Part shown: in pieces, positions 2,747 to 46,239 of the stretch
Layout: each line of letters starts with the position of its first letter
Numbering within the stretch: the stretch's first letter is position 1
Source of the DNA: Escherichia coli
GTDB lineage: Bacteria; Pseudomonadota; Gammaproteobacteria; Enterobacterales; Enterobacteriaceae
Direction: 5' to 3' (one strand)
Assembly: GCF_016026235.1 (NCBI RefSeq)
Contig: NZ_CP065613.1
Length of the DNA stretch: 64,000 nucleotides
The notes under the pieces: generated by a model
The model's input: only the letters and a program-made list of their open reading frames with translations
What the model was told of the DNA's origin: nothing
The model's database searches: none
Position numbers and translations under genes: made by a program

Positions 2747-3034
2747 TTAAAGTTCGTGTGCCATCTTGTCTTTTTCGGCACAAGCTGCACTGCAATATTT
2801 TCGTTTCTTTCTGGCAATCATGTTTCCATGCATATAAATAAGCTCGCCAGTAAAAGCTTTTTCAGGTAAAAACTGTTTATTGCAGAGATGGTAATCACAT
2901 TGTATTAAATCCAGGTCACCTTTTTGCTGGAGAATTTTTCTGATTCTCCACAGCCATTTTTTAATCCCGGTATGACTGATGGTCTGCCTGAGGGCAGGTG
3001 TAAAACAATAATCAAGCATGGGGTTCATATCCAT
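2747..3034 (-). CDS. hypothetical small Cys-containing protein
   Basis: 95-aa ORF in operon context; no family recognised. Confidence 0.3.
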   Translation of the reverse strand: MDMNPMLDYCFTPALRQTISHTGIKKWLWRIRKILQQKGDLDLIQCDYHLCNKQFLPEKAFTGELIYMHGNMIARKKRKYCSAACAEKDKMAHEL

Positions 3035-23566: not shown

Positions 23567-25557
23567 ATGCAGGCAGGTCACCAGAGTGACGCGGATATTT
23601 ATATTTATGACGAGATTGGTTTCTGGGGTGTTACGGCGAAGCAGTTTATCAGCGATCTGAATGCACTGGGCGATATCACCCACATTAATCTCCATATCAA
23701 TTCACCGGGTGGCGATGTCTTTGAAGGCATCGCCATTTTTAATGCACTGAAAACACATGGTGCGTCCATTACCGTTTATGTCGACGGTGTGGCGGCATCA
23801 ATGGCGTCGGTCATTGCGATGGTGGGAAACCCGGTCATTATGCCGGAAAACACCTTCATGATGATTCATAAACCATTTGGCTTTACGGGCGGTGATGCGG
23901 AGGACATGCGCACCTATGCCGACCTGCTCGATAAAGTTGAGGCGGTTCTGTTACCCGCTTATGCACAGAAAACCGGGAAAACCACCGATGAAGTTGCTGC
24001 CATGCTGGCGGATGAGACCTGGATGTCCGGTGCCGAATGTCTGGCACATGGATTTGCTGATCAGGTGACGCCAGCCGTTAAGGCAATGGCATGTATTCAG
24101 TCAAAACGTACAGAGGAATTTAAAAAGATGCCGGAATCCATTCGAAACATGATTACTCCGCCACGCAACAGTGCAACGCGTGAACCTGAAAACAAAAATA
24201 CTGCATCTCAGACACAGGAGCAGACTACGGCTCAGGTTGCCACAACCGCGACCACCACAAATGCACCTTCCGCAGATGAAAGCAGTATCCGTGCGCAGGT
24301 ACTGGCAGAGCAAAAAGCACGTGTGAGTGGTATTAATGAACTGTTTGGTATGTTTGGCGGGCGTTATCAGACATTGCAGGCCAGTTGTCTTTCCGATCCG
24401 GAGTGCTCGCTTGAGCAGGCCCGTGAGAAATTACTTAACGAAATGGGTAAGGAATTTTCACCATCAAATAAAAATACCCCGGCCCATATTTATGCCGGAA
24501 ACGGTAATTTTGTGGGGGACGGGATCCGCCAGGCGCTGATGGCGCGTGCCGGGTTTGAAAAAACTGAACGTGATAATGTCTACAACGGGATGACCCTGCG
24601 TGAATATGCCCGTATGTCACTGACTGAACGGGGTATTGGGGTTTCCGGTTATAACCCGATGCAGATGGTCGGGGCAGCGTTCACACACAGTACGTCTGAC
24701 TTCGGTAATATTCTGCTGGATGTTGCGAACAAAGCCATTCTGCAGGGCTGGGAAGATGCCCCTGAAACCTATGAACAGTGGACGCGGAAAGGTCAGCTGT
24801 CTGATTTTAAAATTGCCCATCGTGTGGGTATGGGGGCTTCAGTGCTCTGCGTCAGGTGCGTGAAGGAGCGGAATATAAATACGTTACTACCGGAGATAAA
24901 CAGGCCACGATTGCACTGGCGACCTATGGTGAACTGTTCAGTATCACCCGTCAGGCCATTATCAACGATGATCTGAATATGCTGACCGATGTCCCGATGA
25001 AACTGGGCCGTGCGGCAAAATCCACTATTGCCGATCTGGTTTATGCCATTCTGACGTCTAACCCGAAAATCTCCACAGATAATGTAAGTCTGTTCGATAA
25101 AGCGAAACATGCAAACGTACTGGAGAGCGCTGCAATGGACGTGGCATCGCTGGATAAAGCCCGCCAGTTGATGCGTGTTCAGAAAGAGGGTGAGCGTCAT
25201 CTGAATATTCGTCCTGCGTTCGTACTGGTACCGACGGCGATGGAGTCTGTTGCTAACCAGGTCATTCGCTCCTCAAGTGTCAAGGGGGCTGACATTAACG
25301 CCGGTATTATTAACCCGGTGAAAGATTTTGCGACCGTTATTGCAGAGCCTCGTCTTGATGATAACAGCCAGACCACCTTCTACCTGGCTGCGTCCAAAGG
25401 CTCCGATACGATTGAAGTGGCTTATCTCAACGGTGTGGATACGCCATATATTGATCAGATGGAGGGCTTCAGTGTGGATGGCGTGACAACGAAAGTGCGT
25501 ATTGACGCTGGTGTCGCGCCAGTTGATCACCGCGGTCTGGTGAAATGTACGGCGTAA
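23567..25557 (+). pseudogene. Prohead protease (ClpP/S49-like) - scaffold - major capsid fusion, frameshifted at G-run 24832-24836
   Basis: N-terminal ClpP-like GDVFEGIAIFNALKTHGASITVYVDGVAASMASVIA; capsid-like C-terminal part continues in ORF 24856..25557; one extra G restores continuity. Confidence 0.6.
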
Positions 25558-37644: not shown

Positions 37645-38244
37645 ATGCGTAAACTTTATGCCGCCATTTTGTCCGCAGCCATTTGTCTGGCCGTATCCGG
37701 TGCGCCTGCATGGGCATCTGAACATCAGTCCACGCTGAGCGCGGGGTATCTTCATGCCTCGACGAACGTTCCCGGCAGCGATGATCTTAACGGGATTAAC
37801 GTGAAATACCGTTATGAGTTTACGGACACACTGGGGCTGGTGACGTCATTCAGCTATGCAGGAGACAAGAATCGCCAGCTTACCCGTTACAGCGATACCC
37901 GCTGGCATGAAGATTCCGTGCGTAACCGCTGGTTCAGCGTGATGGTGGGGCCGTCTGTGCGCGTGAATGAATGGTTCAGCGCGTATGCGATGGCGGGTAT
38001 GGCTTACAGCCGTGTGTCGACTTTCTCCGGGGATTATCTCCGCGTAACTGACAACAAGGGGAAAACGCACGACGTGCTGACCGGAAGTGATGACGGTCGC
38101 CACAGCAACACGTCTCTGGCGTGGGGAGCTGGCGTGCAGTTTAACCCGACCGAATCCGTGGCCATTGACCTTGCTTATGAAGGTTCCGGCAGTGGCGACT
38201 GGCGCACTGACGGTTTCATCGTGGGTGTCGGTTATAAGTTCTGA
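37645..38244 (+). CDS. lom: Lom-like outer membrane protein (Ail/OmpX family)
   Basis: Signal peptide, beta-barrel pattern ending GYKF; position between J and stf as in lambda. Confidence 0.75.
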
Positions 38245-38270
38245 TTAGCCAGGTAACACAGTGTTATGAC

Positions 38271-38296
38271 AGCCCGCTGGTTCAGGCGGGCTTTTT
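38271..38296 (+). terminator. Rho-independent terminator after lom
   Basis: AGCCCGC-TGGTTCAG-GCGGGCT followed by TTTTT. Confidence 0.55.
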
Positions 38297-38307
38297 GTGG
38301 GGTGAAT

Positions 38308-39720
38308 ATGGCAGTAAAGATTTCAGGTGTACTGAAAGATGGGGCGGGTAAACCTGTCGTAAATTGTGCGATTGAACTGCGGGCCAGAAGAACCAGTCCG
38401 ACCGTTGTGGCACACGTTGTTGCCACTTGCGTGACGGACAATAACGGTGCTTATGTGATTGAGGCTGAGCCGGGGTATTACGAGGTTGCGCTTCACTGTA
38501 ACGGCTGGCAGCCAACCCGTGTCGGGGATATTGATGTGGCACCGACTGATGCACCGGGGACACTGAACGCGTTTCTGAATGCACCAAAGGATGGTGATTT
38601 ACGTCCGGAGGTGATGAAGCGCTTTGAGGAAATGGTGGCGCAGGCGCAGCAGAGTGCCGGGGCTGCAGCCGGAAACGCACAGCAGACGGCGCAGAATGTG
38701 GCGGCAGCCGCAACGGCCCGTGATGATGCACAACGTTTTGCGGAGAATGCCAGACAGGATGCAGTTGCCACTGCAGAGGACAGAAAGGCCACTGCGGAAG
38801 ACGTGAAAAGCACGGGGAAAAACGCCGTCTTATCCGGTCAGCGTGCACAGGCAGCCGCAGGTTATGCCCGCGCAGCAGAACAGGCCAAAAATGACATTGA
38901 TGCTGCGCTGACCGGCACTCTGAAAACGGCTAACCATCTGTCAGAAATCGCAGCAGCAGGCGAAAAGGCACAACAGAAGTCCCGGGATAATCTGGGGCTG
39001 AAAAGTGCGGCCACGATGGAAGCACAGAGCGACATTTACGACCGGACAAAAGGCCGTCTGGCGATACCCGGCGCATTCGGCTTTGGGTGTGCTTTTCTGC
39101 CTGAAGATGTTATCCGTTTTGACACTAAGAGTGATTTCCTGGCCTGGGTAAGGAATGCGCTGCCAGGTGAGTATTCCGTTGCTGGCCGCCTGGGCATCAT
39201 ACCCGACACACGGTTTGAAGGGGTGCTCAGCATCCGGTGGACTGATGCACGCCCTGAGACAACAGAACCGCGGTACAGAGCCAAATCCCTTACTTTTTAC
39301 GGCATTAACGGCCCCATTTATCACACCCGCTACTGCTACTGGCCCATATCCAGACTGACTGACTGGGTGAAAATAAATATAACCACAGAAGATATTATTT
39401 ACAGAATCGTGGCGAGCTCTGTCTGCAACAGATGGGGAGACCCTGACATTGGCGGGCTGATTATTGCTGCGTACCAGGGAGAAGCTGACGGTGATAAAGT
39501 CATCAGACTTGTCAGGGGGCAGTCATACAGAGGCTCACGACTGGGACCGGTGGGGATTTCAGTGCCCAGTACTCCCACCGGAACGCATATAGCATACCCA
39601 CAATTTTTCATTACGGGATGTTCAGAGCATTCATTACCGGGGTCATATTGCGCCCTGTCCGGGGTGCCGGATGCACATGTCTCTGGCGCAATGCCCGGGC
39701 TTTTTATTCGCACATCGTGA
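38308..39720 (+). CDS. Side tail fibre protein (Stf-like)
   Basis: ATG at 38308; N-terminal prophage tail-fibre domain, Ala/Gln-rich central region. Confidence 0.55.
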   Translation: MAVKISGVLKDGAGKPVVNCAIELRARRTSPTVVAHVVATCVTDNNGAYVIEAEPGYYEVALHCNGWQPTRVGDIDVAPTDAPGTLNAFLNAPKDGDLRPEVMKRFEEMVAQAQQSAGAAAGNAQQTAQNVAAAATARDDAQRFAENARQDAVATAEDRKATAEDVKSTGKNAVLSGQRAQAAAGYARAAEQAKNDIDAALTGTLKTANHLSEIAAAGEKAQQKSRDNLGLKSAATMEAQSDIYDRTKGRLAIPGAFGFGCAFLPEDVIRFDTKSDFLAWVRNALPGEYSVAGRLGIIPDTRFEGVLSIRWTDARPETTEPRYRAKSLTFYGINGPIYHTRYCYWPISRLTDWVKINITTEDIIYRIVASSVCNRWGDPDIGGLIIAAYQGEADGDKVIRLVRGQSYRGSRLGPVGISVPSTPTGTHIAYPQFFITGCSEHSLPGSYCALSGVPDAHVSGAMPGLFIRTS

Positions 39721-39730
39721 GGAATGCACC

Positions 39731-40294
39731 GTGGAAATTAAAAAAATCATTAATCCCCGTTATACCGAAAGTGGCGCAGTAGACTGTGACGTTTTTTTTG
39801 ACGACAGGGACCAGGCAGTTCCCTACACAGCCACCGCTGATGATGTCGCACCGACGGGTCAGCAAATCTGGCAGGAACTGCAAAGTGGCAAATGGGGTGA
39901 GATAGCCCCATTCACTGTGACACCAGAAATGCTGGAAGCGGCCAGAGAGGCCAGACGTCAGGAAATTGAAGCATGGCGCGCAGAACAGGAGGCGAAGCCG
40001 TTCACGTTTGAATGGAACGGTCGTATCTGGAATGCTGGTCCCGACTCACTGGGCCGCCTGTCCCCGGTAGTCATGCTGGCAAAATCTGTCACAGCACAAA
40101 CACATATGGCGTGGAGCGATGCCGATAATCAGCAGGTGAAACTGTCGATGCCGGAACTGGAAGAACTGGCGGCAGCAATGGTGCAGGCGCAGGTCGATCG
40201 CAACGATGAGATTTATCGCCGTCAGCGGGAGCTGAAGGAAGAGCTGAATAGTCTGAAGGATTTGAATTCGGTTAGGAATTTTATCGTGGAATAA
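39731..40294 (+). CDS. hypothetical protein following stf (possible tail fibre assembly/chaperone)
   Basis: GTG at 39731 after GAGGAA; function inferred only from position. Confidence 0.35.
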   Translation: MEIKKIINPRYTESGAVDCDVFFDDRDQAVPYTATADDVAPTGQQIWQELQSGKWGEIAPFTVTPEMLEAAREARRQEIEAWRAEQEAKPFTFEWNGRIWNAGPDSLGRLSPVVMLAKSVTAQTHMAWSDADNQQVKLSMPELEELAAAMVQAQVDRNDEIYRRQRELKEELNSLKDLNSVRNFIVE

Positions 40295-40494
40295 CAGAAG
40301 CTGCGGCACGTCGTATGCAGGAACGTGCCGCGGTTGGCTGGTAAACTTTCGATAGTGCGAGTATTGAATGATTTCTAGGCGTTATCGATTTTACGTATTT
40401 TTTGCATGATAGAATTCGTACCTCCTCCCAACGACCTTCCATGGCTTTCCGGACTTCTGTAGGCTGGCGGACGATGCTGTCCTCGGATGTTGTG

Positions 40495-41352
40495 CTAATT
40501 GGGTGATAACAGATCCTGTGTATGGGCGTTTCCCTTTGTGCGTGCGTTGATGCTGGTAACGGTAAACGTCATGATGAACACGACCGCGAATAAGACGACA
40601 ATCGTCGGAGCTGGTGCGCTGTCGATAAAAAAGGACAGCCAGACACCAGTCATTGACACTATTACCGATATGCCAGTCGCCAGTAGGAGCGCAATATGAA
40701 AGCGTTGTGTCAGGAGTACTGCAATGGCGCCAGGCGCAATGAGCAGAGAAATAGAGAGAATGATACCTACTGCTTTCAGCGTCGCCACAATGGTCAGGGA
40801 AACCATGCACAGCAGCCCATAATGCAGCCATCTCGTATGCAAACCGCTTACCTGCGCCTGTTGATAATCAAAGCTGAACAGCAAAAAATCCCGCCATTTT
40901 ACGCTAATAACAAGTGTAACCAGCCCGGCAATAATCACCGTCTGGATTATATCGCCGATGGTTATCCCGAGCATGTCGCCGAAAAGAATATGGTCAAGAT
41001 GTACGTCTGGTTTGATTGCAATATACAAGATCAGACCTGCGGCAAACATGCCAGAAAAAACAATCCCCATAACTGTATCTTGCTTGATTCGGCTGTTGTC
41101 TTTCAGGTATCCCGTCGCCACCGCGCAGAATACTCCGGCGACGAATGCCCCTGTAGCCAGAGGTAACCCCAGAATCCAGGTAAGCACGATGCCAGGAAAA
41201 ACCGCATGACTCATCGCGTCACCCATCAGTGCCCAACCTTTCAGGACCAGAAAGACCGACAGCAGCGCACAGGGTATGGAAACTACCAGTGAAATCAGCA
41301 GTGCGTGACTCATAAAGGTGAACTGCAGTGGCTCCAGTAATAATGCCATCAT
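40495..41352 (-). CDS. sitD: Mn/Fe ABC transporter permease SitD
   Basis: 285-aa polytopic membrane protein; last gene of sitABCD; 4-bp overlap with sitC. Confidence 0.85.
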   Translation of the reverse strand: MMALLLEPLQFTFMSHALLISLVVSIPCALLSVFLVLKGWALMGDAMSHAVFPGIVLTWILGLPLATGAFVAGVFCAVATGYLKDNSRIKQDTVMGIVFSGMFAAGLILYIAIKPDVHLDHILFGDMLGITIGDIIQTVIIAGLVTLVISVKWRDFLLFSFDYQQAQVSGLHTRWLHYGLLCMVSLTIVATLKAVGIILSISLLIAPGAIAVLLTQRFHIALLLATGISVIVSMTGVWLSFFIDSAPAPTIVVLFAVVFIMTFTVTSINARTKGNAHTQDLLSPN

Positions 41353-42206
41353 GAGCGATCCTCCAGCGCTTTATGCGCACGCCGACGATTTGCCAAAAGT
41401 CCATGGGTGGGCGCAAATACAAATGCTAAAAGAAACAGCAGTGTCTGCGCCACCACGATGATTCCACCTGTCGCGCCGTCCAGAAAGTAACTGACCCACG
41501 CGCCGAGGAAACTGGTTACACTGCCAATAGTTACAGCAATTATGAGCAGGCGGGGAAAACGATCGGTTAACAACCATGCTGTTGCACCGGGAGTCACCAC
41601 CAGACAGATCACCAGAAAGGCACCAACCGTTTGCAGCGCCGCAACGGTCGAAACCGACAGCAGGGTGAAGAAGAGGATTTTTAATCTGCCCGGATGTAAT
41701 CCAATAGCACGGGCGTGATTCTCGTCGAAAAAGGTCACCATAAGATCTTTCCATTTGAAAAAAAGCACGATGATCGAGAGAATGCCAATGATAGTGAGTT
41801 GCAGGATATCCGCCGGATCGATTGCCAGAATATTGCCCAGGACGATGGTCTGAATGTTCACGGATGTCGGGTTCAATGACACCATAAACAGCCCCAGGCC
41901 AAAAAAGGACGAGAAGATCAGGCCGATGATGGCATCTTCTTTTAAGCGGGTGCGTTGGTTAAGAAACAGCATGCTGCCCGCTGCCAGTCCGCCGGAAAAG
42001 AAGGCTCCCAGAGAAAACGGAAGCCCCAGCATATATGCCCCCGCAACACCCGGGACAATAGAGTGCGACAGCGCATCGCCAATCAGCGACCAGCCTTTTA
42101 GCATCAGATAGCATGACAGGAAAGCGCAGAGACCGCCGACCATTGCCGAGACCCACATCGCATTGAGCATATATTCATAGCTGAAGGGTTCCAGTAGCAC
42201 GTTCAT
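41349..42206 (-). CDS. sitC: Mn/Fe ABC transporter permease SitC
   Basis: 285-aa ABC-3 family permease. Confidence 0.85.
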
Positions 42207-43030
42207 CTTGCTTCCCTCTGCACCGCTGACGGTCGATGTGCCACAAAAGGGCGTTCATCGTCAGTAATAATGCTTTCTTCCGAGCCGTTAAGTGTGACAT
42301 GGCGCAGTACGCCGCTAAAAGCCAGCTCCAGGTTCTCGGCTGTAAAAGTGGTGTCTGTCGGCCCGCTTGCCAGGACGGTGCCTTTGACCATGACCGTATA
42401 ATCGCAAAATGTCGTGACTGAGCCGAGATTGTGCGTTGAGACAAGCATCGTTTTGCCTTCCGCGCGTAACTCCCTCAACAGGCTGATGATTTTCGCTTCG
42501 GTTTTCACATCAACGCCGGTAAAAGGTTCATCCAGCAGGATCACATCACCCTGCTGTGCAATCGCTCTCGCCAGAAAGACGCGTTTCTTTTGTCCACCGG
42601 AAAGCTCGCCGATTTGACGATGGCGAAAATCCACCATATCGACACGTTCCAGCGCATCGGTGACAATCTGACGATCCCTCTTTTTGGCTATACGCAACAT
42701 ACCCATATGCCCATAGCGGCCCATCATCACCACATCTTCCACCAGTACAGGAAATGACCAGTCAACCTCTTCTGACTGAGGGACGTAGGCAACCAGGTTT
42801 TTCTGTAGCGCCTGTCGCGTGGGAATACCCAGAACAGATATCTTTCCGCTGGTCAGACGCACAAATCCCATAATCGCTTTAAACAACGTCGATTTTCCGG
42901 AACCGTTTACCCCAACCAGAGCGGCAATAGATCCACTTGGTACTGTGAAGGATGCATCGCGCAGTGCTGTGTGCCCGTTACGCCAGGTGACAGTAACATC
43001 ATTAACGACAATGCCTGCAGATTGCATCAT
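42203..43030 (-). CDS. sitB: Mn/Fe ABC transporter ATP-binding protein SitB
   Basis: Walker [10 protein letters not shown], signature LSGGQKKR, Walker B ILLDEP. Confidence 0.85.
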
Positions 43031-43944
43031 TATTTCTCCCTTTTCCCGGCTTTAATTCCCTGTACCAGCGTACTGGTAGTAACCTTAAGAAGGTCGATAT
43101 ACGTAGGTACCGGGCCGTTTTCTGTGCTCAGGGAATCGACATAGAGCACACCGCCGTAGTGTGCGCCGGTTTCACGCGCAACCTGACGCGCTGGTTTATC
43201 GGAAATCGTACTCTCGCTAAAGACTGCCGGGATATGATTTTTCTTAACTATATCAACAACCTTACGTACCTGCTGCGGTGTTCCTTGTTGATCGGCATTA
43301 ATCGGCCACAGATAAAGCTCTTTTAGCCCCAAATCGCGTGCGAGATAAGAAAAAGCCCCTTCACTGGTGACCATCCATCGCTGATTCTCAGGGAGTTCCG
43401 TAATCTGCTTACGCAGGGGGGCAAGGGTTTGGGTAATCTTGGCTTTATAAGTATCGGCATTACGTTGGTAGGTTTGTGCATTTGCCGGATCGTATTTTAT
43501 CAACGCATCACGAATATTATCGACGTAAATCAGAGCATTATCTGGCGACATCCATGCATGGGGATTAGGTTTGCCCTCATAGGGTCCTTCGGTGATCCCT
43601 ACTGGCGTCACACCCGAAGAGACAATTACTTCTGGAACCCCATTGAGATGCTGGTAAAAGCGTTGGAACCACAATTCCAGATTCATACCATTGGCGAGAA
43701 TCAGTTGTGCCCCCTGCGCACGTTTAATATCGCCAGGGGTAGGCTGATACTCATGAATTTCTGCACCAGGCTTGGTTATGGATGAGACTTCTGCAGCATC
43801 TCCAGCCACGTTTTTGGCCATATCCGCGATGATGGTAAATGTTGTAATGACCTTGAATTTTTCAGTTGCACTTGCCTGAAATGCGATCGAGCAGGTGAGG
43901 GCGAGGCACCCCAAGAGCATGGTTACTTTTTTTATTGAGTGCAT
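43030..43944 (-). CDS. sitA: Periplasmic Mn/Fe-binding protein SitA
   Basis: 304 aa, signal peptide, cluster A-I substrate-binding family. Confidence 0.85.
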
Positions 43945-43976
43945 AATTTAGTACCTATAGTGAGCAAAATTAGAAC

Positions 43977-43998
43977 AAACATAGCAACGGCTATGTTT
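43977..43998. promoter_or_regulatory. MntR box upstream of sitA
   Basis: Perfect inverted repeat AAACATAGC-AACG-GCTATGTTT, 33-54 bp upstream of the sitA start codon. Confidence 0.6.
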
Positions 43999-44020
43999 TA
44001 TAGCATAACCTATACAAAAT

Positions 44021-44039
44021 GAAAATAATTATCATTAAC
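44021..44039. promoter_or_regulatory. Fur box upstream of sitA
   Basis: GAAAATAATTATCATTAAC matches Fur consensus GATAATGATAATCATTATC at 15 of 19 positions. Confidence 0.5.
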
Positions 44040-44497
44040 AGCTTTGAGGCCTAAAACAGGGATTAGGTTGTTTCCTGCTGGCGACATGATATTGAGGAAA
44101 AAAGTAGAGCAGCTATTAGGCTTTGAAATGACTTTATGAGGAAAATTGTTGATGGCAAAAATGGGGCAAAACGCTGTAGAAGGGGCAAAAAAGGGGCAAA
44201 AAAAGAGTGGGTTATCGTAGCTTATTGTTGTCGCTGATAATGTTTAACATATTGAAAAATAAATAAAATACTTATGAGTCAGATAGTTGTGATTTTTGCC
44301 CTTACTTGTTCAGATTGTATTGTTCTTTCTTGCTAATTTCTTGATTTTGCGACATTTAAAAGCGACTCAATTCGTTATATGGCATCAGAAGAGTATGCGT
44401 CATGCCGGAACGCCCAGCATAAGAAATCTGATATAAAAACTGTGGCGTGTATGGTACGGATTAGAGGGGAAAATGTCAGCACATTTGCGAAATGAAT

Positions 44498-44524
44498 CAA
44501 AAAGCCCGCAGCAATGTGCGGGCG
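44498..44524 (-). terminator. Rho-independent terminator of uspF
   Basis: Minus-strand GCCCGCA-CATTGCT-GCGGGC followed by TTTTT. Confidence 0.5.
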
Positions 44525-44530
44525 TTAGTG

Positions 44531-45046
<516 letters not shown>

Positions 45047-45075
45047 TTAGATCAAAGGAGGAAGAATAAGCAGAA

Positions 45076-45102
45076 AAAGCCCGCCATAACAGCGGGCAGG
45101 AG
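45076..45102 (-). terminator. Rho-independent terminator of ompN
   Basis: Minus-strand GCCCGC-TGTTATG-GCGGGC followed by TTTTT. Confidence 0.5.
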
Positions 45103-45105
45103 GAT

Positions 45106-46239
45106 TTAGAACTGATAAACCAGACCTAAAGCGACAATATCATCGGTAGAGATGCCGTTGGCAGCGTAGAAACTGTCATCTTCATCCAACAGGTTGATTT
45201 TATAGTCAACATAAGTGGACATGTTTTTATTGAAATAGTAAGTCGCGCCAACATCGGCGTATTTAACCAGATCTTTATCATCAACACCTGCCGGGTTGTC
45301 TGCACCACCGGCAGCGTGCAGGTCACGGCCTTTAGACATCAGGAAAGAGACTGCCGGACGCAGACCAAAATCAAACTGGTACTGTGCAGTGACTTCAAAG
45401 TTCTGGGTTTTGTTTGCAACAGCATAATCGCTGTCGCCAAACGGGGTCATATTACGCGTTTCTGAATACATGGTTGCCAAGTAAATATTGTTAGCATCGT
45501 ATTTTAGCCCAGCAGTCCACGCGTCTGCTTTATCACCACCCGCCGCAGTATGGTTAACCTGGTCATTGGTGCGGTCAGAAGAGGTGTATGCCGCACCAGC
45601 GCTAAAGCCCATGCCTAAATCATATGTTGTGGAAAGACCCCAGCCGTCACCGTTTTCATGGCGAACATCACGTCCGTTGTTGGTGCCTTCCTGACCATTA
45701 CTGGCACCTTCGTTGTTACCTTGATACTGCACCGCGAAGTTCAGACCATTTACCAGACCGAAGAAATCAGTATTACGATAAGTCGCGACGCCATTGGCAC
45801 GACCAGTCATAAAGTTGTCTGCATTGGTATAAGAGTCACCGCCAAATTCAGGCAGCATATCGGTCCAGCCTTCGATGTCGTACATTACGCCATAATTACG
45901 TCCGTAATCGAAAGAACCGTAATCTGAAAATTTCAGTCCGGCAAATGCCAGACGGGTCCATGACTGGTTTTTTGAAGATTCAGTGTTGTTTGCCTGAATA
46001 TTGTATTCCCATTGACCGTAGCCAGTAAGTTGATCGTTAATTTGGGTTTCGCCTTTAAAACCCAGACGCGCATAGCTCTGGTCGCCATCTTTCGCTGAAT
46101 TATCAGAAAAATAATGCAGGCCATCAACTTTGCCATACAGATCTAATTTGTTGCCGTCTTTATTATAAACTTCGGCTGCATGTGCAGCACCTGCGCCGAG
46201 CAGGGCAGGAATTAAAAGTGCCAGTACTTTGCTTTTCAT
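45106..46239 (-). CDS. ompN: Outer membrane porin OmpN
   Basis: 377-aa OmpC/F-family porin with signal peptide, C-terminal LVYQF. Confidence 0.85.

Follow-up and report, generated by a model that had tools for sequence, protein, structure and literature searches.

A conserved hairpin between tail-fibre genes and sitD in a Rac-like prophage of Escherichia coli, a probable leftward terminator at a mosaic boundary of lambdoid phages

In the 64,000-nucleotide stretch of Escherichia coli DNA analysed here (the window), the intergenic spacer between the last tail-region gene of a Rac-like prophage (+ strand) and the convergent gene sitD (minus strand), which corresponds exactly to positions 40295-40494, carries a hairpin that is most plausibly a conserved, leftward-acting (minus-strand) Rho-independent terminator. 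Such a terminator would close the accessory unit of lambda-like phages (the "b region," or moron) at the point where it converges with the tail-fibre genes. We give this reading, which is built on sequence comparison and folding, a probability of roughly 60%. Taken in this way, the hairpin is an unannotated intrinsic terminator at a phage module boundary, an element of a known kind and not of a new one. It bears no annotation in the records of lambda, HK97, phi80 and K-12 Rac that were examined, and recognition of a conserved terminator hairpin at a mosaic boundary shared by lambda, HK97, phi80, Rac and many Stx phages should aid both prophage annotation and the mapping of breakpoints. An earlier reading of the sequence alone had offered two explanations, a recombination junction at which the sit cargo was acquired and an RNA-stabilizing structure; the first of these is largely wrong, and the second roughly right, albeit probably for the opposite strand.

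The hairpin and its surroundings

The inverted repeat consists of two arms of 9 nt, GCGGCACGT and ACGTGCCGC, which are 100% complementary and enclose an 11-nt loop (Table 1); 7 of the 9 pairs are G-C, giving a stable, G+C-rich stem-loop. The 9-bp hairpin proposed in the sequence-only reading is thereby borne out, and although the place given for it, about 40298-40326, was the right neighbourhood, its true position is 5 nt to the right. The stem begins 9 nt past the TAA codon (40292-40294) of the last tail gene, a measured gap that agrees with the description of the hairpin as lying directly after that stop, and the bases next to the stem on the + strand, GGTTGGCTGGTAAAC, contain no T-run, as had also been remarked. 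As + strand RNA, in which G-U pairs can lengthen the stem to 40299-40335, the region folds with an energy of -27.4 kcal/mol (z = -4.8, with 0 of 200 shuffles as stable), and as minus strand RNA with -18.4 kcal/mol (z = -2.9, 2 of 200 shuffles as stable). The greater stability of the + strand form in the window copy speaks against a minus-strand terminator. Perfect 9-bp hairpins occur in the 64-kb window as 27 overlapping instances in approximately 17 places, compared to 3.6 +/- 3.1 in composition-preserving shuffles; since a perfect hairpin of this size is therefore not rare by itself, the case that this one goes beyond chance rests on its conservation, with compensatory changes, across phages.

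Table 1. Features of the tail gene-sitD region, in window coordinates
Feature	Coordinates	Strand	Basis or remark
Last tail-region gene, DUF4376 / tail-fibre-assembly-like	39671-40294	+	Pfam DUF4376; same annotation in identical E. coli DNA
Position of the minus-strand U-tract	40288-40302	-	Reads AGCTTCTGTTATTCC; overlaps the tail-gene stop codon
Hairpin, putative terminator	40303-40331	-	Arms 40303-40311 and 40323-40331, loop 40312-40322; folding and family covariation
Conserved non-coding segment beside the hairpin	40332-40396	-	Found with the hairpin in lambdoid phages
Lambda b-region-like spacer, continued	40397-40472		Aligns to lambda about 24265-24340
Short tail common to chromosomal and plasmid sit loci past the sitD stop	40467-40494	-	Phage/sit joint at its left end
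sitD, last gene of the leftward sitABCD operon	40495-41352	-	Stop codon 40495-40497

The hairpin is located downstream of sitD, on the sitD strand and 163 nt beyond the sitD stop codon. A consensus scan for promoters and terminators picked up no site on either strand of the spacer. With none between sitD and the hairpin, a sitABCD transcript would encounter no strong structure before the hairpin; this freedom from competing signals favours the terminator. At the hairpin itself, the consensus terminator scan gave no + strand site, and no U-tract follows the stem on that strand. The two phage-like segments of the spacer have different distributions: the first, 40332-40396, which contains the 28-mer employed below to collect copies, is in most copies the 3'UTR of a convergent dinI-like gene, while the second, 40397-40472, is missing from dinI-type copies and is common to sit-linked copies and to lambda-group phages.

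Two further observations concern the neighbouring genes. If the DUF4376 ORF is taken to begin at its first ATG, its first 50 nt (39671-39720) overlap the end of the tail-fibre ORF before it (38266-39720), and its true start may be located further downstream. At the other end of the operon, just upstream of the sitA start, there are a perfect palindrome, AAACATAGCaacgGCTATGTTT (43977-43998), and an A/T-rich sequence, aaatgaaaataattatcattaac (44017-44039), which resemble an MntR box and a Fur box, such as a sit promoter would be expected to have.

Structural conservation and the choice of strand

An exact 28-mer from the conserved flank (40348-40375) was used to collect copies from viral contigs and from the loci gathered earlier, and recovered 127 copies with 54 distinct hairpin variants. 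In 34 distinct minus-strand sequences, whose covariation was also examined with RNAalifold, 90% of the cells hold standard pairs and 8 of the 11 pairs have changed on both sides; for each of five covariation measures, none of 500 shuffles attained the observed value, and sliding the partners by 1-3 columns lowers pairing to 23-56%. The most variable stem pair occurs as A-U, G-C, and C-G. In addition, one subfamily has exchanged the whole inner stem and loop for unrelated sequence and still forms a 9-bp hairpin, indicating that it is the structure, and not the loop sequence, that is conserved. Both the covariation and the survival of the hairpin through this replacement support the terminator reading. 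The loop, of 9-11 nt, counts against it, being longer than in typical intrinsic terminators.

The same alignments bear on whether the hairpin could lie inside a small minus-strand protein-coding gene, as do the coordinates of HK629 F849_gp27 (23920-24129, minus strand), a 69-aa "hypothetical protein" that spans the hairpin and has its like in some lambda records; a 53-aa ORF can also be drawn in the window (40281-40442, minus strand). One-nucleotide bulges, however, appear and vanish in the left arm among copies, shifting the frame from one to the next and ruling out a conserved reading frame; the HK629-type frame, begun at the ATG at 40407, ends in the window after 10 codons, and in most copies the segment lies past the dinI-like stop codon. 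A coding explanation is thus hardly credible, and an ORF across the hairpin is contradicted by the alignments, its frame not being conserved among homologues. The sequence-only reading had named a hairpin conserved inside a coding region as the finding that would tell against its own views; this is not what the copies show, the frame stopping early in the window and shifting in others.

Pairing within the stem does not distinguish the two strands, as wobble pairs are equally frequent on both (30 versus 30 cells), with a mean stem energy of -14.5 kcal/mol on either, and this neutrality lends the minus strand no support. The flanking tract does. On the + strand, an A-rich tract comes before the hairpin, also in copies with unrelated DNA further upstream, and the minus-strand tails that follow the hairpin are correspondingly T-rich, as in TTTTTCTTTTTCG, TTTTCTTTATG, TTTCATTTATC, and TTTCTGTTATT; the family U-tract takes the forms TTTCTGTTATT and TTTTTCTTTTT, with CTGCGG-TTTTTCTTTTT as an example of a good tract. 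Tail strength was expressed as the d'Aubenton-Carafa T-tail score, with random 15-mers from the window as background. Over the 54 unique variants, minus-strand tails have a median score of 3.0, with scores of at least 3 in 27 and of at least 2 in 39, compared to 1.3% and 5.4%, respectively, of background 15-mers, while on the + strand a score of at least 3 is reached by 0 of 54 variants. The confinement of the T-tract to the minus strand argues for leftward termination.

The tail of the window copy is poor in comparison, a point that weighs against the reading: its minus-strand sequence AGCUUCUGUUAUU (also given as AGCTTCTG) scores 1.69 when measured from the stem end as aligned in the family. 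On its left side, the window is most closely related to phiP27, which reads ...GGAATAACAGAAACCGCGGCACGT where the window reads ...GGAATAACAGAAGCTGCGGCACGT, with GAAAC at the position of the window's GAAGC, and the tail UUUCUGUUAUU (score 3.43) has become AGCUUCUGUUAUU in the window copy through two substitutions, which also add G-U pairs to its + strand stem. Due to these two changes in the U-tract, the window copy probably terminates transcription only partly at best, and it may serve chiefly as a barrier to 3' exonucleases. The U-tract is likewise missing in the copies of lambda and VTB97432v.

An action on the RNA of the + strand must also be considered, in which the hairpin would serve as a 3' stabilizer or weak terminator of the late tail transcript, blocking 3'-to-5' exonucleases and leaving CssrB-like fragments of approximately 180 nt as the product. 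CssrB is a small RNA encoded on the chromosome of Shigella flexneri 301; a strand-specific northern blot showed it as a band of approximately 180 nt, and its 3' end was taken from terminator prediction and not mapped (PMC3071730). Rfam E-value searches of 38000-46000 and of 40000-40700 gave a partial match to CssrB (RF02799) as their sole signal, at 30.3 bits compared to a gathering score of 76; the O157 locus gave a similarly sub-threshold match to the terminal hairpin only, and ten other loci gave no Rfam family at gathering score. Within the match the likeness is close, the terminal hairpin aligning base for base together with its loop and the stop-codon/A-rich stretch before it, and with a compensatory difference of G-C to A-U; it extends, however, to only the last ~40 of the 180 positions of the model, and the upstream 130 nt are unrelated. 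The window was thus rejected as a member of CssrB, its score being below the gathering score and only the terminal hairpin aligning.

CssrB is defined on the tail-gene strand, and its model ends in the hairpin in + orientation, which makes the only experimental hint one that speaks against a purely leftward element. The hairpin is also found 5-15 nt past a + strand stop codon in most variants, and the stronger + strand fold of the window copy points the same way. On the other hand, a U-tract follows the stem on the + strand in none of the 54 variants, and lambda, WI2, AR436, and K-12 Rac all keep the hairpin in the absence of a tail gene immediately upstream. As the principal function, + strand stabilization is hence a rather doubtful candidate; the hairpin could nevertheless serve both convergent transcripts, and such a role is compatible with a terminator. 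By analogy, the CssrB match suggests that tail-strand RNA can end at such a hairpin, and that a + strand stabilizer role could be secondary and non-exclusive. The notion of an RNA-stabilizing structure in the sequence-only reading remains reasonable to that extent, the window hairpin being compatible with one that closes CssrB, but a terminator on the minus strand is better supported.

The dinI-like context and the proposed transcript end

The hairpin and approximately 65 nt of its right flank occur in 197 records of the phage collection, which include lambda, HK97, HK629/630, phi80, HK75, phiP27, mEp234, and many Stx phages. Its commonest right-hand neighbour is a convergent dinI-like gene (with the ending ...WESADEWFVH*), the stop codon of which is located ~70 nt from the hairpin, and it is such a gene that the hairpin adjoins in Stx and O157 prophages. 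In phi80, the hairpin is found between the stop codon of tail-fibre gene 25 and that of the convergent dinL, a member of the DinI family; in HK97, it lies between tfa and the annotated sib site, in a segment that directly abuts sib; in lambda (~24163-24195), it is located in the b region, with ea47 starting on one side of it and ea31 ending on the other, so that it is downstream of ea31. This constancy of relative place in HK97, lambda, and phi80 supports the terminator.

Eighty close dinI-like loci, all at least 95% identical and all with sufficient 3' flank, were retrieved by protein, and the exact 28-mer is present downstream of the gene in 61 of them. Conservation among these loci amounts to 0.91-0.99 in the CDS, 0.89-0.96 in the 3'UTR, and 0.66-0.78 in the hairpin, and similarity collapses just past the hairpin and T-tract. 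Conserved coding sequence and 3'UTR followed by a collapse after the T-tract are the signature of a gene-plus-terminator unit that ends at the hairpin, and both the dinI-like neighbour and this end of homology favour leftward termination. In its usual form, the element would thus constitute the last ~110 nt of the prophage dinI-like transcript, consisting of a ~70-nt 3'UTR, the hairpin, and the U-tract. This terminal piece would have been kept when the dinI-like gene was swapped for ea31/ea59 in lambda, for sib/att in HK97, and for sitABCD in the window, which has no dinI-like gene; the segment of ~65 nt (40332-40396) persists in these three as an orphan.

In the window, transcription of sitABCD would proceed through the 163 nt past the sitD stop to the hairpin, which would fix or shield the sit mRNA at its 3' end and restrict antisense read-through towards the tail genes. 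The bases common to all sit loci hold no terminator, and the operon would accordingly borrow that of the phage wherever it is still present. From the structure, its covariation, the asymmetry of the T-tract and the contexts described above we infer both actual termination and its efficiency in the window copy. A published Term-seq table for K-12 lists no 3' end at the Rac copy, which counts against the reading, though the region may be silent there.

The orphan persistence of the ~65-nt segment also raises the question of whether it has a function of its own, with the hairpin terminating a conserved regulatory small RNA that would be excised from prophage dinI-like mRNAs at their 3' ends, and the window holding an orphan and probably silent copy. 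A precedent exists in DinR, an Hfq-dependent small RNA processed from the dinI mRNA's 3' end in Klebsiella pneumoniae (PMC10907235), and the commonest context of the hairpin, the 3'UTR and terminator of a LexA-type dinI-like gene, is alike. The segment of ~70 nt before the hairpin is, moreover, highly conserved in phages with differing flanks, and good members of the family combine the hairpin with a long U-tract in the usual form of Hfq-binding RNAs. The likeness to DinR is nonetheless one of context only, since its pairing region is Klebsiella-specific according to its authors (PMC10907235) and the window has no dinI-like gene. The 3'UTR displays no conservation beyond that of the CDS, although in 80 loci at least 95% identical this is a weak test; Rfam assigns the segment to no family beyond the partial CssrB match, and the window spacer holds no promoter-like site. 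Literature on RNAs from prophage dinI 3'UTRs, lambda b-region terminators and the sit island yielded, besides the CssrB paper and a sit-island review, only DinR as an analogue, with no such RNA in E. coli. A small RNA of this type, which RNase E would derive from a dinI mRNA 3' end and Hfq would bind, is consequently improbable. The same low likelihood applies to the wider idea, drawn by analogy, that the hairpin and its ~65 nt form a mobile RNA module, in which a leftward terminator or insulator would be joined to a small RNA body from SOS-induced prophage dinI-like mRNAs, as a phage counterpart of DinR; were it true, phages would be keeping the module and reusing it behind new cargo such as sit for a function of its own.

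As a leftward terminator, the hairpin resembles most closely the intrinsic terminators of phage morons. The moron concept, a phage accessory gene accompanied by its terminator, reportedly goes back to Juhala and co-workers in 2000, a work that PMC4104026 cites. As in moron terminators, a G+C-rich stem-loop has, in the majority of the family, a U-rich tract behind it on the accessory gene's own strand, and it stands at the end of a gene-plus-terminator unit that coincides with a mosaic boundary; unlike in moron terminators, the U-tract of the window copy is eroded and its loop fairly long, and a single terminator piece recurs behind several kinds of cargo, namely dinI-like genes, ea31/ea59, and sit. 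Lambda sib / tI, downstream of int, also forms an RNA hairpin along this leftward transcript path; sib is, however, a long RNase III substrate next to att, whereas the hairpin described here is a stem of its own, with 9-11 pairs, further downstream. Two other classes of element were considered and set aside: a sib-like RNase III site, for which, to judge by its length, a stem of 9-11 pairs would be too short, and a REP-type host repeat, every copy with inspected annotation being located in phage or prophage DNA.

The mosaic boundary and the sit genes

Comparison of 39900-40700 with 5,426 complete E. coli genomes by megablast identified only 6 in which at least 80% of the query is present in one place. 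One group of genomes matches the window from inside the left arm (40307) through sitD, while in most chromosomal sit loci the match begins only at 40475, and in plasmid ones only at 40488; sit-negative prophages have in common with the window either the end of the tail gene, the hairpin and ~90 nt to its right, or just the hairpin and those 90 nt. Where hairpin and sit do occur together, their linkage is stable, a further point in favour of the terminator: sitD, spacer and hairpin are found together in 367 of the 5,426 genomes, and all 10 contexts obtained by looking up the identical SitD protein hold an identical hairpin and spacer. In 2 of these 10 (L220 and L223), the spacer has a tandem duplication of 10 nt, GTCCGCCAGC, which lies ~35 nt beyond the sitD stop, and in both an IS66-family element lies just beyond the spacer duplication.

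The comparison of chromosomal, plasmid and lambda sequences places the joint between sit and phage DNA ~7-35 nt past the sitD stop, at window positions 40467-40488 and ~140 nt from the hairpin, which is therefore not where sit meets phage DNA. To the left of the joint, 40297 to ~40472 aligns to lambda 24163 to ~24340, which makes nearly the whole spacer between tfa and sitD lambda b-region-like; in the Rac-like prophage, the sit genes thus lie inside such DNA and not directly against the tail genes. Alignment of the region with sit-negative prophages (K-12 Rac and those of O157, in which the hairpin is present) and with E. coli sit loci indicates that the hairpin is not specific to the sit junction, and, by these alignments, it is not the specific site of sit insertion. 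Nor is it required for sit, as it is absent from the commonest chromosomal sit locus (E. coli MNCRE44 type) and from plasmid loci, an absence that weighs against the terminator reading. In the MNCRE44 locus (L003 3990-4021), an internal tfa motif, ...AAGTATCGGGTGTTGCTG, is fused to the sequence 20 nt past the sitD stop, and the fusion has the appearance of a ~330-bp deletion between two TGCTG microhomologies, with loss of the end of tfa, the hairpin and the spacer.

The left side of the hairpin presents a different picture. Homology among sit-linked copies starts in or at the left arm, which is preceded by four different neighbours: the DUF4376 gene in the window, another tfa family in VTB97432v, an MFS transporter gene in AR436 and, in WI2, an ea47 homologue of the same length as lambda ea47 (410 aa), with lambda-like sequence up to the left arm. 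The order of genes in WI2 is that of lambda, tfa followed by the ea47-like gene and the hairpin, with sit then replacing ea31/ea59; its hairpin (L132 about 2985-3020) combines a left arm of lambda type, CCGCAGACACGT, with a right arm of window type, ACGTGCCGCGG, at the cost of an A-C mismatch, and such a hybrid suggests a crossover within the conserved loop. To judge from these junctions, mosaic breakpoints recur at the hairpin's left edge, as expected at the end of a selectable gene-plus-terminator unit. The idea of a sit-acquisition junction in the sequence-only reading finds no support in the form proposed, with sit-negative phages carrying the hairpin and the joint lying elsewhere, yet it holds in that this edge is a place of repeated exchange.

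It could thus be asked whether the hairpin and its flank are mainly a recombination joint at the DNA level, a patch of homology across which tail-fibre modules are exchanged to its left and cargo modules, sit among them, to its right. In addition to the four left neighbours and the WI2 hybrid, K-12 Rac could be cited in support, as it keeps only ~35 nt (hairpin and A-tract) between unrelated flanks, and a review describes the sit island as varying by homologous recombination (PMC7545054). A patch of homology, however, has no need of compensatory changes or of an exchanged inner stem and loop that still pairs, both of which suggest that structure is under selection; termination, and not recombination, accounts for the conserved T-tract, and breakpoints beside terminators are expected in any case if selection keeps gene-plus-terminator units together. 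The distance of ~140 nt to the sit joint itself also speaks against it, as does the lack of an invertase-type crossover site. Recombination as the main role of the hairpin is therefore unlikely.

Crossover sites of Din-family invertases (gix/hix/pix) are 26 bp in length and consist of two inverted half-sites around a central dinucleotide. A site of this type was discarded, as the consensus has no match with up to 3 mismatches anywhere in the window.

K-12 Rac, a sit-negative prophage at the same uspF/ompN site, allows the extent of the exchanged DNA to be measured. Its unannotated hairpin is located between ynaM and the prophage end (L134 10725-10763; NC_000913.3 about 1434724-1434762), preceded by GTTGAAAAA, with the AAAAA tract kept and unrelated DNA on its left side; on its right side, 47 nt away, begins the right-end sequence of the prophage, which matches the window from 44153 onward at 98.5%. 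Relative to K-12 Rac, the additional DNA of the window is thus 40338-44152 (~3.8 kb), comprising the spacer, sitDCBA and the promoter region, and the hairpin is the last common element before this spacer-plus-sit segment. Where the similarity to the K-12 Rac right end resumes, 44153-44205 (K-12 Rac L134 10807 onward) holds 3-4 direct repeats of GGGGCAAAA(A) within TGGCAAAAATGGGGCAAAACGCTGTAGAAGGGGCAAAAAAGGGGCAAAAAAAGAG, which could be arm-type sites of a recombinase near attR.
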